Below are positions 2,145 through 35,159 of a stretch of 64,000 nt of DNA, piece after piece. A program made the translations under genes and the position numbers. The stretch lies in sequence record PZ019085.1. One strand, given 5' to 3'. Every line of letters starts with the position of its first letter. Position 1 is the first letter of the stretch. Under the pieces are notes generated by a model. That model worked only from the letters and a program-made list of their open reading frames with translations. It was not told where the DNA came from and ran no database searches. The stretch is from a phage.

Positions 2145-3071
2145 TTAACCTACCAAAATACCTGCAGGAGGGTCCAGTAAATATAACTCTTCTCGTAAAG
2201 CTTCTTTCTCTAAACGAGCTTCTTCAATTAATCGAACACCATCAACAGTGACGCCACCGGGTAACATCATACCTTGATGTTTAGCAAGAATTTGTCCATT
2301 AAGCTCTTTAGCTAATGCAGTTGCATAATCTTTAACCCAGCGGTTGTTATATGCGCCTTGTTTAGTTGCAGGATCTTCGCCAACTCGACGTCCGACCAAA
2401 TTATGGTCTGGATTATCATAACGTTCAGAAATAGACCATGAATCACGAGGACCTACTTGACCGTACCCTACTGTATTTCCTACCATCTTATGGGTCTCGA
2501 TATAAGAGCGAACATACGATTCAACGATAATGACATCTTTCTGTCTAAAGTTACCAATTACTTTTAATTGCTCGTTTGCAGAGTTAAACCAAAAATCTGG
2601 AAGAGGAGCAATCATATCTTGAAGCATACCCATATAAGATACTAATTGAGAATAATACCCGAGATCAGCGCCAAAAGCGTTCGGCCCGTAGAATTTACCG
2701 CAATTACTACCCATACCACCTGAAACACCGGCCATTCCTAAAAGGAAATCAGTGAACCATGGATAAGTTGCATTACCATCCATTGAAGTAATAGAGCCAA
2801 CGTTTGTTCTTATAATTCTTGTTACAGCAAATACGTTAGAACCACGCATATCAAATACGCCGTGACGGTATTTTTCTTCGTCATCAACAAAAAATACATG
2901 GAAACCTTTATTCAACCCGTCAAAATGGTATTCGCCATAAAGTTCTAACGCCCGTGAAATACAATCATAAATTTGATCTGTAGTTAATTCAACATTTACA
3001 ATAGGAGCGCCTAAACGACGTAATATTACGTCCTTTAATTCTTTAGGGTTTTGTGCATTATAACCTGACAT
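2145..3071 (-). CDS. 13: neck protein (T4 gp13-like)
   Basis: 308-aa ORF; size and position of T4 gp13; start ATG at 3069-3071. Confidence 0.85.
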
Positions 3072-3083
3072 ATAAATCCTTTA

Positions 3084-3097
3084 GGGCCCGAAGGCCC
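3084..3097 (-). promoter_or_regulatory. UUCG-tetraloop stem-loop between wac and 13
   Basis: minus-strand GGGCC-UUCG-GGCCC in the 32-nt wac-13 gap, followed by SD AAAGGA and the gene 13 ATG; no U-run. Confidence 0.35.
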
Positions 3098-3103
3098 TTT
3101 TCA

Positions 3104-4552
3104 TTAAGCTGTAGGAAGTTCAACCCATGCACCATCTTTGCGAACATAGAATTTACCATCTGAAGGAGCATCTTCAATATATCCAGCGTCCTTAAGAGTT
3201 TGGATTTCAGCTTCTGCAGCGGCCAAATCAGTTTCAAGAGTAGCAATTCTAGAAGTTAAACTATTAATTGTCGTATCATGACTTTTAACTGTAGGCAATA
3301 TACCACGTTCTTCAACAGTCGAACCGTTTGGGTTAGTGCCATTTATAAGAGTATTTAATGTGTTTACAGAACCCTTAATTCCTGTGGTATTAGTCCCAAC
3401 ATCAGTTTGAATGTTCTGAATGTCATTACTCATCCCACTGATAGTTCCTTCAAGCTCTCGAGTACGATAAAGCAAAGAGCCGTCTGGTTCCGGTTTCCCA
3501 CCTGAAGCGTCAACACCGACTACGTTATTTAACCATGACACATTAAAACGCAATCCTGACGAAGAATCAGAGCCGACAACAGTGTTCAATGCTCCGATAG
3601 CATCAGTATTGAGTTTAATACGTCCTTGGATTGTAGTAGGCAAATCATCAGCGCCAATGGCAGTTTCTACCGTAGTCAAACGAGGTTTAATACCACCTGA
3701 TTGATTGAGCTCAAGATTAATGTCGTTTATTGCTGAACTATTCGCATTAGTTTTAGTAATAATAGAAGTCGTATTAGGATACCCAATAGACTGTTTAATG
3801 CCATCCAAGTCAGCATTTTGACGCGACAAAGTTAAATCAATACCGGAAAGACGACTAAACACTGGAGTAGTGAAAGAAGTGCGAGGTCCCATTTCTTCGC
3901 GCAAGTGTTCGATTTCAATAGTTAAAGAGCCGACGTCAGAATCGGCAAATTTAGTTTCTAAATCAGTTAATCGAACACCATGGTCAACAATTACGGAGCT
4001 ATTGGTCATAATACGGCGTTTCATACCAGTGCTTTCATTTCCTGGAGTAGGAACCCCATTAATATCTTGACCGGTATATTGTCCTAATTCATTTTTAATC
4101 CAAAGCAGGTCGTTACGAACCGTTCTATAAACTGAATCTGTTTCCTGATTATAAACACCAATATCATCAGTATTCGCATCAATATGTTCATTCAAATCAT
4201 TCAATTCACTAGCATGGGTTTGAACTGTGACTTTAATGACATCGATATCTTGGGTGTTCCGGCCTATCTGTGCAAGAGCATCAACATCCCCAGAAACATC
4301 TAAAATACCTTGAATAGCTTTGATATCTTCATTGGCCGTATTCAAAGAAGATGCTATAGTTTTAATATTAGCATCTAACGCTTCTACGTTACGTTGAACT
4401 TCAACAATAGGACGGTTCATTACACCTTCAGAACCGTATTTTGTGTCAGCACCTGTTATTTCTTCATCGTTTTTAATCCATTCAATACGACTCTGACCCG
4501 CGTCTGGCGGGCCGTCAACATATGGTAAATCTACCAGAGTTATATCAGTCAT
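3104..4552 (-). CDS. wac: fibritin (whisker/neck fibre)
   Basis: 482-aa ORF; N-terminus [25 protein letters not shown] and C-terminal foldon GYIEDAPSDGKFYVRKDGAWVEL match T4 fibritin. Confidence 0.9.
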   Translation of the reverse strand: MTDITLVDLPYVDGPPDAGQSRIEWIKNDEEITGADTKYGSEGVMNRPIVEVQRNVEALDANIKTIASSLNTANEDIKAIQGILDVSGDVDALAQIGRNTQDIDVIKVTVQTHASELNDLNEHIDANTDDIGVYNQETDSVYRTVRNDLLWIKNELGQYTGQDINGVPTPGNESTGMKRRIMTNSSVIVDHGVRLTDLETKFADSDVGSLTIEIEHLREEMGPRTSFTTPVFSRLSGIDLTLSRQNADLDGIKQSIGYPNTTSIITKTNANSSAINDINLELNQSGGIKPRLTTVETAIGADDLPTTIQGRIKLNTDAIGALNTVVGSDSSSGLRFNVSWLNNVVGVDASGGKPEPDGSLLYRTRELEGTISGMSNDIQNIQTDVGTNTTGIKGSVNTLNTLINGTNPNGSTVEERGILPTVKSHDTTINSLTSRIATLETDLAAAEAEIQTLKDAGYIEDAPSDGKFYVRKDGAWVELPTA

Positions 4553-6135: not shown

Positions 6136-6791
6136 GAGGCTCTCACAAAGTGGTAGAAAACGGTAGGAGTATCATGGTTATCAAGAGTAACCGTTTGGGC
6201 ACCCAATAAATTCCATGTTCCGTATCCGGATTTTGCTTCAGACAAAATTTCTTGCGAAATTGTTACACCAAACGAAGCATATGTTGGCAACACATGACGT
6301 TGGTTATCTAAATATGTCACCTGAAGTTTATTACCTTCGGTCGGATGGTCTTTATAAGAAGAAATAGCGATTTGATTAGCAATGGCTTCTTGTAAAGCTA
6401 TACGAACTTGTGCCGTTAATTCGTTATCAGTCATACCGATTGTTGCTTTAACAGCAAGTCCAAATACGTTAATAACGACCGGCGTTCCAGTGGTCAAAGT
6501 ATCGTCGAGAACATCACCAGAAAAAGTCCAATAATCAACTTGTGCTGCACCTTCAGGCGATACGCCTGAAGTGTTTGTGACAACAGTACCAATATCAGCT
6601 CGTGCCATATTATGGACATCATTTATTGCAGATTCTACGTTAGCATCATAAAAACCGCGAGCTAACTGAGAAATAGTCACGGAACCTACAGCTTGGTTGT
6701 TTAAAACATCAATTTGAGCTGGATTTTTTCTGTAATTCAAAAAATCAGCATGACGGGAAATAACTCCCGCCTTTGTATTAAGTACAGTCAT
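6132..6791 (-). CDS. 11: baseplate wedge protein (T4 gp11-like)
   Basis: start set at ATG overlapping the gene 10 stop (TAATG), giving 219 aa as in T4 gp11; an in-frame upstream ATG at 6809 is also possible. Confidence 0.85.
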
Positions 6792-8596
6792 TATGCAATC
6801 CTTACCCAACGGTATACAGTTATAGATGGCTGAATATTAGTTATAGAACGCGCTGGAACATGAGATCCATTAGTCTTTGCATGGTCTTCACGATATTTAG
6901 TGTAAATAGGTCCTTCTTCATCTGGGTCATATTGACAACCGCCTATAATTACTGTACCATTATCATCAGAAATAAGAACCTTTTCATCGGTTTGTGTAGC
7001 TGGTAAATCAGCATTTTCTAATGTGATGGTTGTTACACCAACGGTCCCACCTGCGGTATGAGTAGGGTTACCATTGATGTCAAGGTCATTATTATTTAAT
7101 GCAAAATTAGGATCTGACGCGTCATCATTCCAACCTGCTAATACTTTGCCTTGACCCCAAATTTTCCACGAACCAAAACCTAAATAAGTTGCCGGATTAT
7201 TAGGGTTAACCGCATTTTCGTAAATAGTCCCGACAGGATAAATTGTGTCAAATATTGCTGAGATAGTCGAGAATTCACGTTCATATGTAGGAACAGGTTC
7301 TACATTAGGCCAGCCAATTTTATCAAAATCGGTTAATGCAACATCGCCAGTAATTTCAATGTTAGACCCTTGAGAAACATATTTCTCGTCAGTGGCATCA
7401 AGGATTTCTTCCATTTCAAGAAGAGTTCCTAAATCGTTATTAAACCATGTGATGGTAATAATGTCTTGGTCTTCAAATTGACGGTCAAACAGAATTGCGC
7501 TAGGGATATTATCGGTATACTCAATCGCATAATCTGTATACGATTGAGTCCATGTCCCGCCGAGATTAGCGCATGACTCTTCAGAATCAGCATCTACACC
7601 TTCACAACGGAAAATAGGAGTTCCAACAGTACCAGCTAATTCTTGGAGAATACCGTTGAAGCGAACTTCTAATGAATTAGGGTTAGGTGGTTCTGTAGGA
7701 TTAATACCAAATGCTGTAAATGGAATAGACCGGAACGTACTCAAATCAGTGACGTAAATACTTCCATCAATAGACTTTTTAGCAGTCAATTTACTATCTA
7801 AAATGCGAACTTGGCGACGAGTATATGAACTACGCCACTGAGAAACACCATCTAGGAACGTCTCAATTTGTACGGTGTCGCCAACATTACATGGTTGGCG
7901 TAATCTAATATTAAATCCATCAAGTGCAACCAGTTCACCAGGATTAGCGCCTGGAGAACCAAAATCACTATTATCACTGAATACATCACCATAATACAAT
8001 TCGTTGCCACGATGTTTTACGCGAATGTTGTTAACGTTATAAGAGGTCCCGTTAAAAACATCCATGAAATCGGTCTGACCTTGGGTTTCAACCAGATATT
8101 CTCTACGAGCAACATTACTAATGTCAGAGCTAACTATTTTATCAATTTGTTTGTTCTTGATGTATTCCCAACGTCCAGGAGCACAATAAACTAATTCTAA
8201 ATCAGAGAACTGAACGTTAATTTCTACTGGAGATGAAGAACCTTTAATCGTGTCCCCGTTTGCCGGAATTAAAGTAACAGGGTTAATGTTCCAAGTTGCA
8301 AATACGTCACGAGCACGAATAACTTTATTATAGTCTGCAATCGTCCCTTTAGGAAGATTTACTGAAACTCGTCCAGAAGTAGTATTAATTGCATAAGATT
8401 TACCCCAAGCGGCCTTAAGATTAAGACCATCAGCCGCATCATAAGTCTTCCATGCGCCAGCGGCATAAGGAACTTCACCATCACCTAATTCATAATAGAG
8501 TTCGTCAAAGTTCTCGTTTATTTTTTCACCACCTCGACGAAGGTAATCGCCTTGTCCGTCATCAACGACGTTACCAATTTTAATATTTTGTTTCAT
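6791..8596 (-). CDS. 10: baseplate wedge / short tail fibre attachment protein (T4 gp10-like)
   Basis: 601-aa ORF; size and synteny of T4 gp10. Confidence 0.85.
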
Positions 8597-18765: not shown

Positions 18766-18773
18766 TATAAATA
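18766..18773 (+). promoter_or_regulatory. T4-type late promoter (TATAAATA) for gene 4
   Basis: plus-strand TATAAATA 27 nt upstream of the gene 4 ATG. Confidence 0.6.
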
Positions 18774-18780
18774 ATAATAC

Positions 18781-18788
18781 TATTTATA
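18781..18788 (-). promoter_or_regulatory. T4-type late promoter (TATAAATA) for gene 53
   Basis: minus-strand TATAAATA about 43 nt upstream of the gene 53 start; divergent from the gene 4 promoter. Confidence 0.55.
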
Positions 18789-22315: not shown

Positions 22316-22603
22316 ATGAAAACCTATAAAGAATTTATATCACCTGTTGCTAACGTTTCTACTCTGACCGAAGCAACCCTTACTTCTGAAGTTATTAAAA
22401 CAAATAAAGGACGTGAGGGTAAACCAATGATTAGTCTGGTTGACGGTGAAGAAGTAAAAGGTACTGTTTACTTAGGGGATGGATGGTCTGCTAAGAAAGA
22501 CGGCGCTACTATTGTTATCTCTCCGGCTGAAGAGACTGCATTGTTTAAAGCTAAGCATATTTCTGTAGCTCAGCTTAAAATTATTGCAAAAACTCTTCTG
22601 TAA
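22316..22603 (+). CDS. ipI: internal protein I-like (capsid targeting sequence protein)
   Basis: 95 aa starting MKTYKEFISPV, the T4 capsid-targeting-sequence motif (MKTYQEFIAE); ipI position next to 57B; length equals T4 IPI precursor. Confidence 0.7.
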   Translation: MKTYKEFISPVANVSTLTEATLTSEVIKTNKGREGKPMISLVDGEEVKGTVYLGDGWSAKKDGATIVISPAEETALFKAKHISVAQLKIIAKTLL

Positions 22604-24187: not shown

Positions 24188-24264
<77 letters not shown>

Positions 24265-24282
24265 ACTTTAAGTGAGGAAAAT

Positions 24283-24627
24283 ATGAAAGGCAATGTTTAT
24301 CTGGTAGTTCATGATTTAACGTTTTATTTTAACGAACGTGAAACAGTTATTTCCGATAGGTTAATTAATTCGCTGTATCAGCATGCCGATTACATCTATG
24401 TTCAAAATGAATTTGGACATTGGAAGTTTCTTAAAAACCGTTCCGGGTTAACTAGTTTTGAATACTTTGACCGTAAAGACCTTTTAAACGAAATCCCATT
24501 GCAACATCGGTTCCAGAAACGCGAATCACTATACTATTGTCGTCATATACCAAATGCTGAATGTGCTAATGAAGCGATTAATCTATGGCGTCGGCGTCGA
24601 GAGCAAATTGATAATATGCCAAAATAA
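24283..24627 (+). CDS. hypothetical protein
   Basis: 114 aa from ATG 24283 (SD GAGGAAA), chosen because the longer ORF start lies inside tRNA-Arg. Confidence 0.55.
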   Translation: MKGNVYLVVHDLTFYFNERETVISDRLINSLYQHADYIYVQNEFGHWKFLKNRSGLTSFEYFDRKDLLNEIPLQHRFQKRESLYYCRHIPNAECANEAINLWRRRREQIDNMPK

Positions 24628-24931
24628 GAAGCCGGGTCGCTACCGGCAAGTCGTCGGACTGATGTTCCCTGAGTAAGGACTGGTCTTAATAAATCTTTAT
24701 GATTTGTTAATATCCCCTTACATCACAGCAGAAACGGCGCACAGAATTATCGATTCGAGGAAATATCTTTGCCGTAAGCCGAGTAGCGTTTTTGACGGAA
24801 CGTTCGGATATGGTCGAGATATGGCCTTTTAAAAATATTGAGTAGCGTCAACTGCTTAATAACCGGGTTCGAATCCCGGCGTTTCGTACAAACACTTGCC
24901 TTAGTAGGTGGAAACCCCGACAAGGTATATA
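24628..24931 (+). ncRNA. candidate structured non-coding RNA region
   Basis: about 300 nt with no ORF of 60 aa or more on either strand, downstream of the tRNAs; contains a tRNA T-arm-like CCGGG-TTCGAAT-CCCGG and a GCCGG hairpin; T4 encodes small stable RNAs next to its tRNA cluster. Confidence 0.3.
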
Positions 24932-24959
24932 GCCCCTTCCGAAAGGTTGGGGCTTTTTT
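24932..24959 (+). terminator. rho-independent terminator
   Basis: GCCCCTTCC-GAAA-GGTTGGGGC hairpin (two internal T:T mismatches) followed by TTTTTT. Confidence 0.65.
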
Positions 24960-24960
24960 G

Positions 24961-24968
24961 TATAAATA
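24961..24968 (+). promoter_or_regulatory. T4-type late promoter (TATAAATA)
   Basis: exact TATAAATA 35 nt upstream of the ATG at 25004, directly after the terminator. Confidence 0.6.
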
Positions 24969-25003
24969 TAGTAAACAATAAACCTACTTTCTAAGGACCA
25001 TCA

Positions 25004-25630
25004 ATGTATACTTTTAATGAATTTTTAGCCGAAACGGAAGTAATCACCGAAGCCGGTGTACGTATGACAAAAGAGAAATGGCAAGCTGCTTACGATGCTA
25101 TTTCTGGTACAAAAACTAGTACAGAGTTTTTCAAAAACGTTCAAGCCATGTATGGTATCGACACTTCCAGCCAAAAAGAATATTACAGAGCTTCTAAAGC
25201 ATTCAAAGATATTGTTAGTGGCGGTGTTTCTGCTAAATCGGGTTCGCCTAAAGTAAAACCTGCTCCTACCGTTCCTAAACCTGCGACCCCTAAAGCAATA
25301 GCAAAACCTGAGCCTAAGCCGGAAGTAAAAGCAACTCCTAAAGCTCCTGCTCTTAAGTTTGATACTTCTAGCCTGGAAAAAAAATATAAACAACTATCTT
25401 CGCTTGTTCGTGATATTGAATCCGATACATCTTCACTCGTTCGTGAATTCAACAGTCTTCGTAATGGCCAACATATCAACAACCTTGATACCCCAGACCT
25501 TTATCGTCTTTATTTGACTATCGAAGGTTTGAAGTATACTCAACCACTTCACGATGCGATTAAAGAAAAACTTCGTCAGGCAGGTCGTTTGGCTGCTGAC
25601 GCTGCTCAGTATGCAAAAACCCGTAAATAA
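25004..25630 (+). CDS. capsid-targeting-sequence protein with Lys/Pro-rich linker (candidate internal/injected protein)
   Basis: 208 aa; N-terminus MYTFNEFLAETE resembles the T4 CTS; central KPAPTVPKPATPKAIAKPEPKPEVKATPKAP linker; late promoter directly upstream. Confidence 0.6.
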   Translation: MYTFNEFLAETEVITEAGVRMTKEKWQAAYDAISGTKTSTEFFKNVQAMYGIDTSSQKEYYRASKAFKDIVSGGVSAKSGSPKVKPAPTVPKPATPKAIAKPEPKPEVKATPKAPALKFDTSSLEKKYKQLSSLVRDIESDTSSLVREFNSLRNGQHINNLDTPDLYRLYLTIEGLKYTQPLHDAIKEKLRQAGRLAADAAQYAKTRK

Positions 25631-25649
25631 TTAAGTTACAATCACTTAA

Positions 25650-25674
25650 GCCCCTTCCTATGGAAGGGGCTTTC
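25650..25674 (+). terminator. hairpin, possible terminator
   Basis: GCCCCTTCC...GGAAGGGGC perfect inverted repeat followed by TTTCGGG (weak U-run). Confidence 0.45.
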
Positions 25675-25708: not shown

Positions 25709-25750
25709 GTTTACTTCTCCTTGAGGTATGATACTATAGACCTATCAAAA
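25709..25750 (+). promoter_or_regulatory. early promoter cassette (PeSL-like)
   Basis: GTTTAC...GATACTATAGACCTATCAAAACAAATGAGG upstream of the ATG at 25768. Confidence 0.5.
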
Positions 25751-25767
25751 CAAATGAGGAAAACATT

Positions 25768-26271
25768 ATGAGTCTTTATACTGAACTGAATAAAAAATCT
25801 GAAGAATCGCGTGACGTTGTTTTTAAAAATGTACAAAAGCGTATTTTGGAAAAGATGTATGATGCTGCATCTAAAGGTGAAAAATCATGCCGCTTTCCGA
25901 TGAGATGTTCTACAGATTTATGCTCAAATACTATTGAATGGTTAGAAAGCGAAGGTCTTACTGTAGAGAAAAACCCGGCGACTTCTATTGACGGTGAATC
26001 ATATATTAGTATTTCTTGGGATAAACCACAGGTTAATGAGAAAGACGGTGATTGGGTTGTGGATGTTAAGACTTCTGACGGTGGACGTTCTGTTGAAGTT
26101 TCAGCCGTAGTTAAAGGTACACATGGGCAAAATAGCTGGGGGTGTGGTGGTGAAGAAAAAGAAATTGTTCTTAGTGTGATTGCAAGGTCCACTAGCAATA
26201 AAATTGCCCAGAGCATCATCTATGCTGCGTGCATTGAAGCTGGAAAAATTTGCAAAATTAAAAATAAATGA
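25768..26271 (+). CDS. hypothetical protein
   Basis: 167-aa ORF; several Cys (CRFPMRCSTDLC, WGCGG); no recognised family. Confidence 0.6.
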   Translation: MSLYTELNKKSEESRDVVFKNVQKRILEKMYDAASKGEKSCRFPMRCSTDLCSNTIEWLESEGLTVEKNPATSIDGESYISISWDKPQVNEKDGDWVVDVKTSDGGRSVEVSAVVKGTHGQNSWGCGGEEKEIVLSVIARSTSNKIAQSIIYAACIEAGKICKIKNK

Positions 26272-32920: not shown

Positions 32921-33409
32921 ATGAATATATTTGAAATGCTTCGTAATGACGAAGGTCTTAGACTGTCTTTATACAAAGACACTGAAGGCTTTTGGACGAT
33001 TGGCATAGGCCATTTAGTAACAAAGAACCCGTCTTTAGCCGTAGCTAAAGCTGAACTTGACAGAATGATCGGACGTAAATGCAACGGTACAATTACCCTT
33101 GATGAGGCTGAAAAGCTATTTAATGAAGACGTTGATAAAGCCGTTCGCGGAATCTTGGGTAATGCTAAACTTAAACCGGTATATGATTCTTTAGATGCGG
33201 TTCGTCGATGTGCATTGGTCAATATGGTCTTCCAAATGGGTGTAGCAGGCGTCGCTGGTTTTACTAATTCTCTTCGTATGCTTCAGCAGAAACGTTGGGA
33301 TGAAGCGGCAGTAAATCTAGCCCAATCTAAATGGTATCGTCAGACACCTAATCGCGCGAAACGCGTAATCTCAACATTTAAAACAGGAACTTGGAAAGCG
33401 TATATATGA
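32921..33409 (+). CDS. e: endolysin (T4 lysozyme)
   Basis: 162 aa [32 protein letters not shown]...; close match to T4 lysozyme incl. catalytic E11, D20, T26 context. Confidence 0.95.
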
Positions 33410-33687
33410 AAACATATAGTGAATTTTTATCAGAATCTATTCTTAACGAAGCTACTGACACATTTGCAACTAAGCTAGGTGCAGCTTTGGTTGAAGCTGA
33501 AAGTCTATTAGCACGTATTTCTGAACTTGCTAGTAAGATAGATACTCGCAAATTTGAACGTACCAGCGATATCGTTAAGCTTGAAGCATTGTTGCGTATG
33601 TGCGATAAACCGGAAGAAATCGCTAAGAATGGCTCGCTAATGAAACAACGTCTTGAAAAATATATTTCAGGCGCTTCAGAAAAATAG
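33406..33687 (+). CDS. internal protein-like (capsid targeting sequence protein)
   Basis: 93 aa [16 protein letters not shown]...; CTS-like N-terminus; ATGA overlap with e stop; position of ipIII/ipII in T4. Confidence 0.65.
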
Positions 33688-33688
33688 T

Positions 33689-33725
33689 GTTTACTTCCTC
33701 CAAGGACTTTGATACTATACATTCA
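33689..33725 (+). promoter_or_regulatory. early promoter cassette
   Basis: GTTTAC...GATACTATAC upstream of denV. Confidence 0.5.
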
Positions 33726-33745
33726 TCAACTACTTGGAGGAAATT

Positions 33746-34159
33746 ATGACCCGTATCAATTTAACACTTGTTTCTGAACTGACCGACCAACATCTTATGG
33801 CAGAGTATCGTGAATTACCACGCGTATTTGGTGCAGTCCGTAAACATGTTCAAAACGGTAAACGTGTAAAGGATTTTAAAATCTCTCCAACATTTATCTT
33901 AGGCACAGGTCACGTAACATTCTTTTACGACAAACTCGAATTTTTACGTTTACGTCAAATCGAGCTAATCGCTGAATGCTTGAAACGTGGTTTCAAAATC
34001 AAGGACACGACTGTCCAGGATATTTCCGACATCCCTGCCGAATTTCGTAATAATTATGTCCCGTCCGAAGCGTCCATTGCGATAAGTCAAGCTCGCTTAG
34101 ATGAAAAAATTGCTCAACGTCCTACTTGGTACAAATACTATGGTAAATCAATTTACTAA
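33746..34159 (+). CDS. denV: endonuclease V (pyrimidine dimer DNA glycosylase)
   Basis: 137 aa [35 protein letters not shown]...; near-collinear with T4 DenV as recalled. Confidence 0.95.
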
Positions 34160-34165
34160 GGAAAA

Positions 34166-34426
34166 ATGAAAATGTATCAAGAATTTATCGCTGAAGCAGA
34201 TGACAAAGGTCCTAAATTTAAAGTTAAAGCTTTCATTGGTGATGCGGAAGACTTTGGCTCATTAAAACGTAATGGGTATTTTTTCTTAGGTGGCGATGGT
34301 AAAGAAATCAACACCTATGCAAAACGTAGTGAAATTGCTTATGTTGTAGCAAGCCCTAAAGTAGATGTTGACGATATTGGATACGATTTTAACAACTTCG
34401 GAATTATTTCTGGCGGTAAAGCTTAA
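34166..34426 (+). CDS. internal protein-like (capsid targeting sequence protein)
   Basis: 86 aa MKMYQEFIAEADDKG...; CTS motif. Confidence 0.65.
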   Translation: MKMYQEFIAEADDKGPKFKVKAFIGDAEDFGSLKRNGYFFLGGDGKEINTYAKRSEIAYVVASPKVDVDDIGYDFNNFGIISGGKA

Positions 34427-34429
34427 ACG

Positions 34430-34459
34430 GTTTACGCTTAAGTATTAATATAGTATAAT
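34430..34459 (+). promoter_or_regulatory. sigma70-like early promoter
   Basis: GTTTAC, 18-bp spacer, TATAAT. Confidence 0.55.
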
Positions 34460-34489
34460 TACTCTATCAAAACAAACAAGGAAACAAAA

Positions 34490-34804
34490 ATGAAAACGTA
34501 TAAAGAATTTATTGCAGAATCCGCCAACCAACGCGTTGAAGGTGGTTATATTTGGATTGAACAAGTTGAGCCGCCGAGCCGCACTTCTACAGGTAAATGG
34601 AAAATTACTGTTGATGGTCCTGGCGGTAAACGTAGGACTCTTAAAGAAATTAACGGGTACTATGAAGAAGCTCTTTCGGATGCAGGAACTTACATGATGC
34701 AAATCATGATTAAAAACCCTGAAAACCGTTTTGCAGCTAAAGTCTTCCGCCGTATTGGTAATAAACTTTATGATGCATACTCTAAAAACTTCCCTAAAGA
34801 ATAA
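34490..34804 (+). CDS. internal protein-like (capsid targeting sequence protein)
   Basis: 104 aa MKTYKEFIAESANQRVEGG...; CTS motif. Confidence 0.65.
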   Translation: MKTYKEFIAESANQRVEGGYIWIEQVEPPSRTSTGKWKITVDGPGGKRRTLKEINGYYEEALSDAGTYMMQIMIKNPENRFAAKVFRRIGNKLYDAYSKNFPKE

Positions 34805-34829
34805 CATAAATTAAAACAATAGGAACAAA

Positions 34830-35159
34830 ATGAAAACATATCAAGAGTTTATCACTGAAGTTACATTATCTGCGGAACAGAAAGCTGCTATCGAAGAAGG
34901 TAAAAATCCCAAAGTAACATATAAAGTAAATAGTAAAGGCGTTTTTGATGACTTGGTTCAAGACCCTGAATTGAAAAAGGCTCTTTCTAAAACTAATGCG
35001 TACTTTGCTCCTAAATTTAACACAGCCGGTGTACTTATTGGATTGGATGTATTCAACTCTAAAGGTGTTCTATCTAATGCCTTTGGTTATGCCGCTAACA
35101 AAATTACCAAAGCCGCATGGGAATCCAATACTAAACAAGCTCAAAAGCCTAGAGTATAA
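34830..35159 (+). CDS. internal protein-like (capsid targeting sequence protein)
   Basis: 109 aa MKTYQEFITEVTLSAEQ...; CTS motif. Confidence 0.65.
   Translation: MKTYQEFITEVTLSAEQKAAIEEGKNPKVTYKVNSKGVFDDLVQDPELKKALSKTNAYFAPKFNTAGVLIGLDVFNSKGVLSNAFGYAANKITKAAWESNTKQAQKPRV

Follow-up and report, generated by a model that had tools for sequence, protein, structure and literature searches.

Internal head proteins that carry a capsid targeting sequence (CTS) are well known as a class in the T-even phages, and host defences encounter them before any other phage product. In T4, the first 10 residues of the internal protein IPIII suffice for packaging, mutagenesis of the CTS assigns residues 4 and 7 to targeting and residues 8 and 10 to processing, and the prohead protease gp21 cleaves after the Glu of L/I-x-E motifs (PMC9026906). 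Within T4 heads, only the lysines of the internal proteins contact DNA phosphates, as seen by solid-state nuclear magnetic resonance (PMC3012670), and Ip1, Ip2 and Ip3 each inhibit a distinct GmrSD-type (type IV) restriction enzyme (PMC12373910, PMC9391042); work since 2022–2025 has linked all three T4 internal proteins (IPs) to the inhibition of type IV enzymes. Here we describe the gene for a 208-residue (208-aa) protein in a 64,000-nucleotide (nt) stretch of phage DNA (sequence record PZ019085.1; the whole stretch, at its full length, is referred to as the window), which lies in the interval between rnaC and e.8.

The 208-aa protein is very likely a packaged, CTS-targeted internal protein, and the account that we favour, with moderate confidence when its full mechanism is taken as a whole, is that the gene specifies a late-expressed, CTS-packaged internal head protein of the T-even type. 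It very probably adds an unrecognised family to the known class.

Capsid targeting signal, predicted processing and presence in virions

A CTS of the MKTYQEFIAE type calls for an aromatic residue at position 4, Phe at 7, Leu/Ile at 8 and Glu at 10, and in this class the protease motif closes a propeptide of 10–19 residues. The first ten residues of the protein, MYTFNEFLAE, carry all four determinants (F4, F7, L8 and E10), and this start, which the sequence-only reading had called CTS-like, agrees with the T4 signal at each of the positions known to be functional (4, 7, 8 and 10). The pattern [YF]4, [FI]7, [LIV]8 and E10 recurs in 20 of 21 distinct sequences tabulated for the family, taking P0026, which lacks residue 2, in register; the deviating member, P0027, has no E10. 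A second L/I-x-E site, V-I-T-E16/A-G (the slash marks the predicted cut), stands directly before the folded N-terminal domain and resembles the true T4 IPI cleavage site T-I-T-E/A; many other members have [LIV]-x-E followed by A or S. Conservation of the two sites, like that of the late box, extends to relatives in at least eight genera. Motifs of the gp21 type elsewhere in the 208-aa protein are sporadic and unconserved. A regular expression for the CTS, applied to all six frames of the window, recovers only the 208-aa open reading frame (ORF) and ORFs 33406, 34166, 34490 and 34830; ORFs 33406, 34166 and 34830 match PHROG 'internal head/virion protein' families at E <= 0.001, and ORF 34490 does so only at E = 0.0077.

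The syntenic orthologue in coliphage vB_Eco_mar005P1, MAR005P1_00015, is identical at 206 of 208 residues and carries the GenBank note 'confirmed structural protein by MS' (mass spectrometry). Michniewski et al. 2019 (PMC6563131), working with virions of this phage purified on CsCl, identified only five proteins in them: the tail sheath, a prohead core protein, the major capsid protein, the packaged ADP-ribosyltransferase Alt and the hypothetical protein MAR005P1_00015. Packaging into the head, which had been predicted with virion proteomics as its check, therefore already has experimental support from published MS of this orthologue, and detection in so shallow a proteome implies a substantial copy number. 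The internal-protein identity can thus be regarded as half-confirmed by an overlooked proteomics result. A 157-aa paralogue, g140 of Yersinia phage fD1, lies in the same slot behind a TATAAATA box, has the CTS MKSYTQFLNE, and is particle-associated by liquid chromatography–tandem MS (PMC8309999). The fD1 gene g141 (L016 7573-8181), an HNH-type homing endonuclease gene within the tRNA region, also has its product listed as particle-associated, and the list therefore includes likely contaminants.

Putative late promoter, predicted domain architecture and possible function

The T4-type late promoter box TATAAATA lies exactly 35 nt (24969-25003) upstream of the ATG at 25004, and an in-frame TAA stands 12 nt before that ATG. 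The layout is that of a T4-type late gene, with TATAAATA at about -10, upstream of the Shine-Dalgarno sequence and the start codon. The octamer is not enriched in the window (7 copies vs 8.3 +/- 2.9 in shuffles), and its significance derives from position and conservation, not from copy count. In family genes compared from diverged phages of the genera Mosigvirus, Dhakavirus, Winklervirus, Tegunavirus, Karamvirus, Kanagawavirus, Marfavirus and Tequatrovirus, a NATAAATA box, in which the first base alone varies, lies 27–38 nt upstream of the ATG in 13 of 14, with a background expectation of 0.013 per 80 nt; the fourteenth gene, which lacks the box, sits directly behind a paralogue. The 208-aa gene is the sole CTS gene of the window with a dedicated late box. 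The sequence-only reading had placed an exact octamer 35 nt before an ORF that follows a terminator and is served by its own late promoter, and all of this holds: the coordinates are right, the hairpin and U-run upstream fold stably and belong to the tRNA-rnaD-rnaC unit, and the putative promoter is conserved across genera. With a hairpin on either side and its own late box, the gene would therefore form a late-only island insulated inside an early region.

AlphaFold2, run on a 14-sequence alignment, predicts a disordered N-terminus corresponding to the propeptide, a three-helix N-terminal domain (N-domain; residues 19-73) with a predicted local distance difference test (pLDDT) score of about 84 (85 when modelled alone), a disordered segment at residues 74-112 with pLDDT below 50, and a three-helix C-terminal domain (C-domain; residues 122-206) with pLDDT above 90. 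The C-domain holds most of the invariant columns of the family alignment, and is 64–77% identical to those of Dhakavirus, Winklervirus, Tegunavirus and Kanagawavirus orthologues. Helix 3 of the N-domain bears Lys58, Arg62, Lys65 and Lys68 at spacings of 4, 3 and 3, and the N-domain has a weak fold resemblance to small DNA-binding three-helix domains; a fold search with the C-domain gave generic helical-bundle matches only. Foldseek against BFVD returned family members only, Pfam has no family for the protein (a SIX1_SD match is sub-threshold), and a sequence profile search of the PDB gave nothing meaningful and no relative with a solved structure.

The segment joining the two domains is rich in Pro, Ala and Lys (PAK), which together make up 74% of its core, and it is net-positive in all family members although its sequence drifts, with net charges of +6 to +9 for the majority of 208-type orthologues, +3 for fHe-Yen9-01 gp154 and down to +1 for P0022. 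Its DNA has a weak 24/48/72-nt periodicity. A tandem repeat was considered and rejected, as TRF finds none, and the segment is a degenerate low-complexity one instead. Of the earlier description of this part of the protein, the helical C-terminal domain agrees with the three helices modelled at high confidence, and the basic, Lys/Pro-rich character of the linker stands; its description as a KPxPxxPKP repeat does not.

In the mechanism that we favour, transcription would be late only, from the gene's own TATAAATA promoter (gp55-type), and the terminator hairpins on both sides would shield the gene from surrounding early transcription. By analogy with the mutagenesis of T4 IPIII, the CTS would dock the precursor onto the scaffolding core of the prohead, and a gp21-type protease would then remove a propeptide of 10–16 residues after Glu10 and/or Glu16. 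The mature basic protein would stay in the DNA-filled head, as virion MS shows for the nearly identical orthologue, and there its disordered Lys/Pro/Ala-rich stretch, together with the basic helical domains, may contact DNA phosphates. The protein would exit with the DNA at the next infection, when the C-domain might, more speculatively, act like T4 Ip1-3 as a first-response factor that protects the DNA or neutralises a host defence. The analogies leave DNA binding in the head evenly balanced; the conserved net-positive charge and the weak fold resemblance of the N-domain are compatible with it, and are not a demonstration. That the main role of the protein is to neutralise host defence is possible on the precedent of Ip1, Ip2 and Ip3, and somewhat doubtful.

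Several observations weigh against this account. Virion detection comes from an orthologue and a paralogue in other phages and not from the window phage itself, and the fD1 particle list is permissive in also containing an HNH endonuclease. The count of gp21 motifs inside the protein does not fall significantly short of expectation (12 observed vs 16.2 expected, P = 0.15), and no homology to any characterised protein is found by sequence or fold in Pfam, PDB, Foldseek/BFVD or hidden Markov model (HMM) searches. Phages whose hosts belong to different genera share a strongly conserved C-domain. Inhibitors of the IPI type, by contrast, evolve fast, and a structural or DNA-directed role accounts for this conservation no less well than that of an arms-race inhibitor.

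A protein targeted to the scaffold might act as an accessory of the prohead core and, as T4 IPIII and gp67/gp68 do in part, shape or stabilise the prohead; its presence in virions would then be a leftover that does nothing in the next host. The modelled all-helical structure would suit such a role, as scaffold and core proteins are helical too, and so would the high conservation of the C-domain across genera with different hosts; T4 IPIII mutants give slowed head assembly and polyheads (PMC9026906), the prohead core protein among the five mar005P1 virion proteins shows that core proteins persist, and strictly late expression, as predicted here, would be appropriate to morphogenesis. The gene is nonetheless dispensable at the family level, with the T4 slot empty and close Mosigviruses carrying different paralogues, the cleavage motifs are confined to the N-terminal propeptide, unlike those of the multiply cleaved scaffold gp22, and independent shuffling of N- and C-domains would be unusual in the partner of a conserved scaffold; we therefore consider a core accessory unlikely. 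Far less probable still is a protein that does not belong to the virion, with a coincidental or vestigial CTS-like start, some other late function, and an MS signal due to contamination by an abundant late cytoplasmic protein. The chance-level count of TATAAATA, the permissiveness of one of the two proteomes (fD1) and the lack of an annotated function anywhere would allow it, but the five-protein mar005P1 proteome was obtained after CsCl banding and consists entirely of bona fide particle components, the CTS determinants and the E/A site are kept even in members whose N-terminal half is otherwise down to about 20% identity, and the CTS pattern is otherwise limited in the window to known ip genes.

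Within the packaged class, the protein could be histone-like, a small globular three-helix domain that binds DNA and a Lys/Pro/Ala tail, as in linker histones, serving to neutralise the charge of the condensed genome, to organise it, or to coat the entering DNA without acting on any particular host target. Each of the three segments is basic (pI 9.35, 10.3 and 9.43), the PAK segment stays net-positive despite its sequence divergence, the four basic residues of helix 3 follow one another at 4, 3 and 3 residues, and the lysines of T4 internal proteins touch DNA phosphates (PMC3012670). There is, however, no sequence match to any DNA-binding family in Pfam, and a histone-like role leaves the strongly conserved C-domain and the C-domain swaps described below unexplained. 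Ala/Pro/Lys linkers also act as plain flexible spacers, which counts against it too, and as a complete explanation we find it improbable. A related proposal, also an unlikely one, treats the PHROG_2280 family to which the protein belongs as modular cargo, in which a CTS propeptide is followed by a linker-histone-like DNA-binding head and a PAK tail that tether the protein to the packaged genome, on which it would ride into the cell, and the C-domains are swappable effectors. If true, the family would be a DNA-tethered delivery platform for first-response anti-defence modules, a phage chromatin-like protein that would have been missed for fifty years because T4 deleted the locus. The internal-head-protein account remains the one that we prefer.

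The PHROG_2280 family and the rnaC-e.8 slot

The 208-aa protein matches PHROG_2280 ('unknown function') at E = 1e-57, and is identical to JS09_035 and to a protein of HX01. A profile search of 1.84 billion cluster representatives yielded 13 clusters, those named elsewhere being T4-like phage proteins, and tblastn finds the 208-aa type in 139 phage records. Database names are all 'hypothetical' or equivalent ('Uncharacterized', 'Phage protein'), and one family member bears a spurious 'isopenicillin N synthase-like dioxygenase' label.

The rnaC region is kept in 738 records, 70 of which carry the 208-aa gene; most of the others diverge directly after the promoter region. Two other PHROG_2280 members, one of 154/157 aa and one of 187 aa, occupy the slot in phiC120, RB69 and many Tequatroviruses; each has a CTS and a AATAAATA or TATAAATA box. 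fHe-Yen9-01 has two members in tandem. In RB69 the 187-aa paralogue is divided between ORF148c and ORF149c, which may reflect a frameshift or a pseudogene. In T4 the slot is empty, the rnaC terminator being joined directly to the sequence that follows the second phiC120 paralogue, a clean deletion with its junction at the stem-loops. The slot is polymorphic within one genus (phiC120 2173-3326, RB69 (NC_004928) 73431-73990, T4 6625-6908).

The domains have separate histories. fHe-Yen9-01 gp154 is 64% identical to the 208-aa protein in the C-domain vs 19% in the N-domain, and CIP9 (2501-3127), P0023 and P0026 retain the CTS, N-domain and PAK linker and have unrelated C-domains; the occurrence of unrelated C-domains behind the same linker suggests that the linker is a recombination joint too. 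From these comparisons we read the slot between rnaC and e.8 as hypervariable, the gene as an accessory cassette within it, and the slot as a putative second locus for internal proteins, occupied by PHROG_2280 members and lost by T4. The 208-aa protein also resembles the IP class in being small and basic (pI 9.5–9.8), in being dispensable at the family level, and in lying in a hyperplastic region beside a PeSL, an element composed of a stem-loop/terminator and an early promoter in the concept of Comeau et al. (PMC4122927). Coordinates are collected in Table 1.

Table 1. Features of the 208-aa gene and its flanks, in window positions.
Feature	Position	Strand	Remarks
rnaD and rnaC homologues (T4 stable RNAs, species 2 and species 1)	about 24627-24889	+	about 95% identical to T4
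Intrinsic terminator	24931..24959 (hairpin 24931-24954 and U-run)	+	-16 kcal/mol, z = -3.4
T4-type late promoter box TATAAATA	24961..24968	+	exact octamer; gp55/gp33-recognised in T4
Shine-Dalgarno AAGGA	24993..24997	+	6 nt upstream of ATG
Coding sequence, PHROG_2280	25004..25630	+	208 aa, 23.1 kDa, pI 9.5; starts MYTFNEFLAE
Predicted propeptide, residues 1-16	25004..25051	+	CTS MYTFNEFLAE and motifs LAE10/T and ITE16/A (slash, predicted cut)
N-terminal three-helix domain (predicted), residues 17-76	25052..25231	+	pI 9.35
Disordered Pro/Ala/Lys-rich segment (predicted), residues 77-117	25232..25354	+	net +6/+7, pI 10.3; from composition and pLDDT
C-terminal three-helix domain (predicted), residues 118-208	25355..25627	+	pI 9.43; best-conserved part of the protein
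Perfect 11-bp hairpin after the stop codon	25648..25672	+	-20 kcal/mol, z = -3.6
T4 early-type promoter TTTACT-N16-TACTAT (putative)	25710..25737	+	read from sequence

The 1.9 kb surrounding the gene are 94–98% identical to Mosigvirus (RB69-like T-even) coliphages, and the window is Mosigvirus DNA. Gene order on the + strand is that of the T4 map read counter-clockwise: 57B, ipI (22316-22603), trna.x ORFs, tRNA-Met, tRNA-Arg, the rnaD/rnaC homologues and the 208-aa gene, followed downstream by e.x genes, lysozyme gene e and a small ip gene cluster around denV. The upstream terminator closes the tRNA-Met/tRNA-Arg-rnaD-rnaC unit; its T4 homologue is the hairpin that follows rnaC. The early-type promoter downstream resembles both the PST/T4 PeSL consensus TTTACW..TAYWAT and the upstream regions of T4 e.8, ipI, ipII and ipIII; it would restart early transcription for the next gene at 25768, and with the downstream hairpin forms a PeSL-type element. 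A consensus terminator and promoter (sigma-70) scan missed both hairpins and this promoter, which were established by folding and by comparison with T4; a strict terminator scan missed the 24931-24954 hairpin because of an internal 2x2 mismatch. We note that the hairpins on either side of the gene have the same 10-mer, AGCCCCTTCC, as their 5' arm (24931-24940 and 25649-25658), which fits stem-loop/PeSL-mediated cassette exchange; recombination between the stem-loops could use it to excise or insert the cassette.

The neighbourhood has further features. Rfam holds no family or model for the rnaD/rnaC homologues; part of rnaC is labelled 'tRNA-Lys' in phage 55, where ARAGORN calls no tRNA. A PHROG_3355 ORF (24235-24627, +) separates tRNA-Arg from rnaD, an insertion with no counterpart in T4; its mechanical TTG start at 24235 overlaps tRNA-Arg (24188-24264), and in related records it is a 345-nt coding sequence, equivalent to an ATG start at 24283. 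Elsewhere in the window, two TATAAATA boxes stand back to back on opposite strands (18766-18773, +; 18781-18788, -), and look like a divergent late-promoter pair.

In the searchable literature and annotations, neither the family, nor its two-domain-plus-linker architecture, late-only promoter and locus, is described as belonging to internal proteins, and Petrov et al. 2010 do not mention IPs. The family was overlooked because its locus is absent from the model phage T4. PHROG_2280 is present in hundreds of sequenced T-even phages of at least eight genera, among them many candidate therapeutic coliphages, and its label 'hypothetical protein' could be replaced by 'putative internal head protein'. 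It is a candidate for host-range or anti-defence functions and for learning how basic proteins sit on packaged DNA, and a ready one in the current search for injected anti-defence proteins.

Comparison with T4 internal proteins and other systems

The closest described protein in size and charge is T4 IPIII, whose processed form IPIII* (183 aa, 20.4 kDa, pI 9.65) is almost the same as the predicted mature product of the 208-aa gene (198 or 192 aa, 21–22 kDa, pI about 9.7; the 198-aa form is 21.9 kDa with pI 9.68). Both have a CTS with the same functional residues and an L/I-x-E motif, and the IPIII gene, too, is non-essential and lies in a hyperplastic region, its product being an abundant head component. 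An IPIII homologue is absent from the window, and the 208-aa protein may therefore fill that size class. By BLAST and hhalign there is no homology between the two past the first ~25 residues, and homology to T4 IPII/IPIII was rejected because only the CTS region aligns; the matches of T4 IPII and IPIII to ORFs 33406, 34166, 34490 and 34830 are likewise confined to the CTS. The 208-aa protein differs from IPIII in its two helical domains joined by a disordered PAK segment, and in its locus, which is rnaC-e.8, whereas that of IPIII is downstream of e. Early-type promoters lie directly upstream of T4 ipI, ipII and ipIII, in contrast to the dedicated late promoter predicted here. The target of IPIII is the ECOR17 GmrSD-like enzyme.

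T4 IPI and IPII, together with window ORFs 22316, 33406, 34166, 34490 and 34830, share with the 208-aa protein a basic charge, a CTS and, as predicted for the latter, processing by the prohead protease. ORF 22316 is ipI (+), matching Pfam IPI_T4 at E = 6e-50 with 87% identity to T4 IPI; the 208-aa ORF has no match to this Pfam family. Glu10 is missing from the propeptide of the window IPI, MKTYKEFISPVANVSTLTE/A, which leaves LTE19 as its one site; the same holds for T4 IPI. The small CTS proteins of the window are single-domain proteins of 86–109 aa with no similarity to the 208-aa protein outside the CTS, whereas the latter is twice as long and modular. The genes ipI (22316) and 34490 lie behind early-type promoters, and 33406 and 34166 abut preceding genes. 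The four small CTS ORFs (93, 86, 104 and 109 aa; 33406-35159, +) flank denV downstream of lysozyme gene e, and are probably further unannotated internal proteins; ORFs 34490 and 34830 are paralogues, with PHROG_3966 ('unknown function') as their best family.

In the same profile family are the PHROG_2280 paralogues, including the 154-aa and 187-aa proteins of phiC120, RB14ORF136, RB69ORF148c/149c, fD1 g140 and fHe-Yen9-01 gp153. These share the slot after the rnaC terminator, the CTS, the late box and the order N-domain, PAK segment, C-domain, and are all annotated as hypothetical. Outside the CTS their identity to the 208-aa protein is low (13–30% in the N-domain, about 6–29% in the linker and 14–26% in the C-domain), and their PAK segments are shorter.

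Beyond the T-even phages, linker histone H1/H5 resembles the 208-aa protein in pairing a small basic helical globular domain with a Lys/Ala/Pro-rich disordered tail, and residues 77-117, with pLDDT below 50, a net charge of +7 and a core that is 74% P+A+K, are H1-like in this respect. There is no sequence similarity to H1/H5, the 208-aa protein has an extra conserved C-domain, and the charge density of its PAK segment is lower than that of true H1 tails. Adenovirus core protein pVII is a looser parallel: it, too, is made as a precursor that the virion protease trims, and it enters the cell with the genome, as would the 208-aa protein. The Dar anti-restriction proteins of phage P1 are taken into the head as it assembles, are injected, and shield incoming DNA from restriction (PMC12810830); in lineage, sequence and packaging hierarchy they are apparently unrelated.

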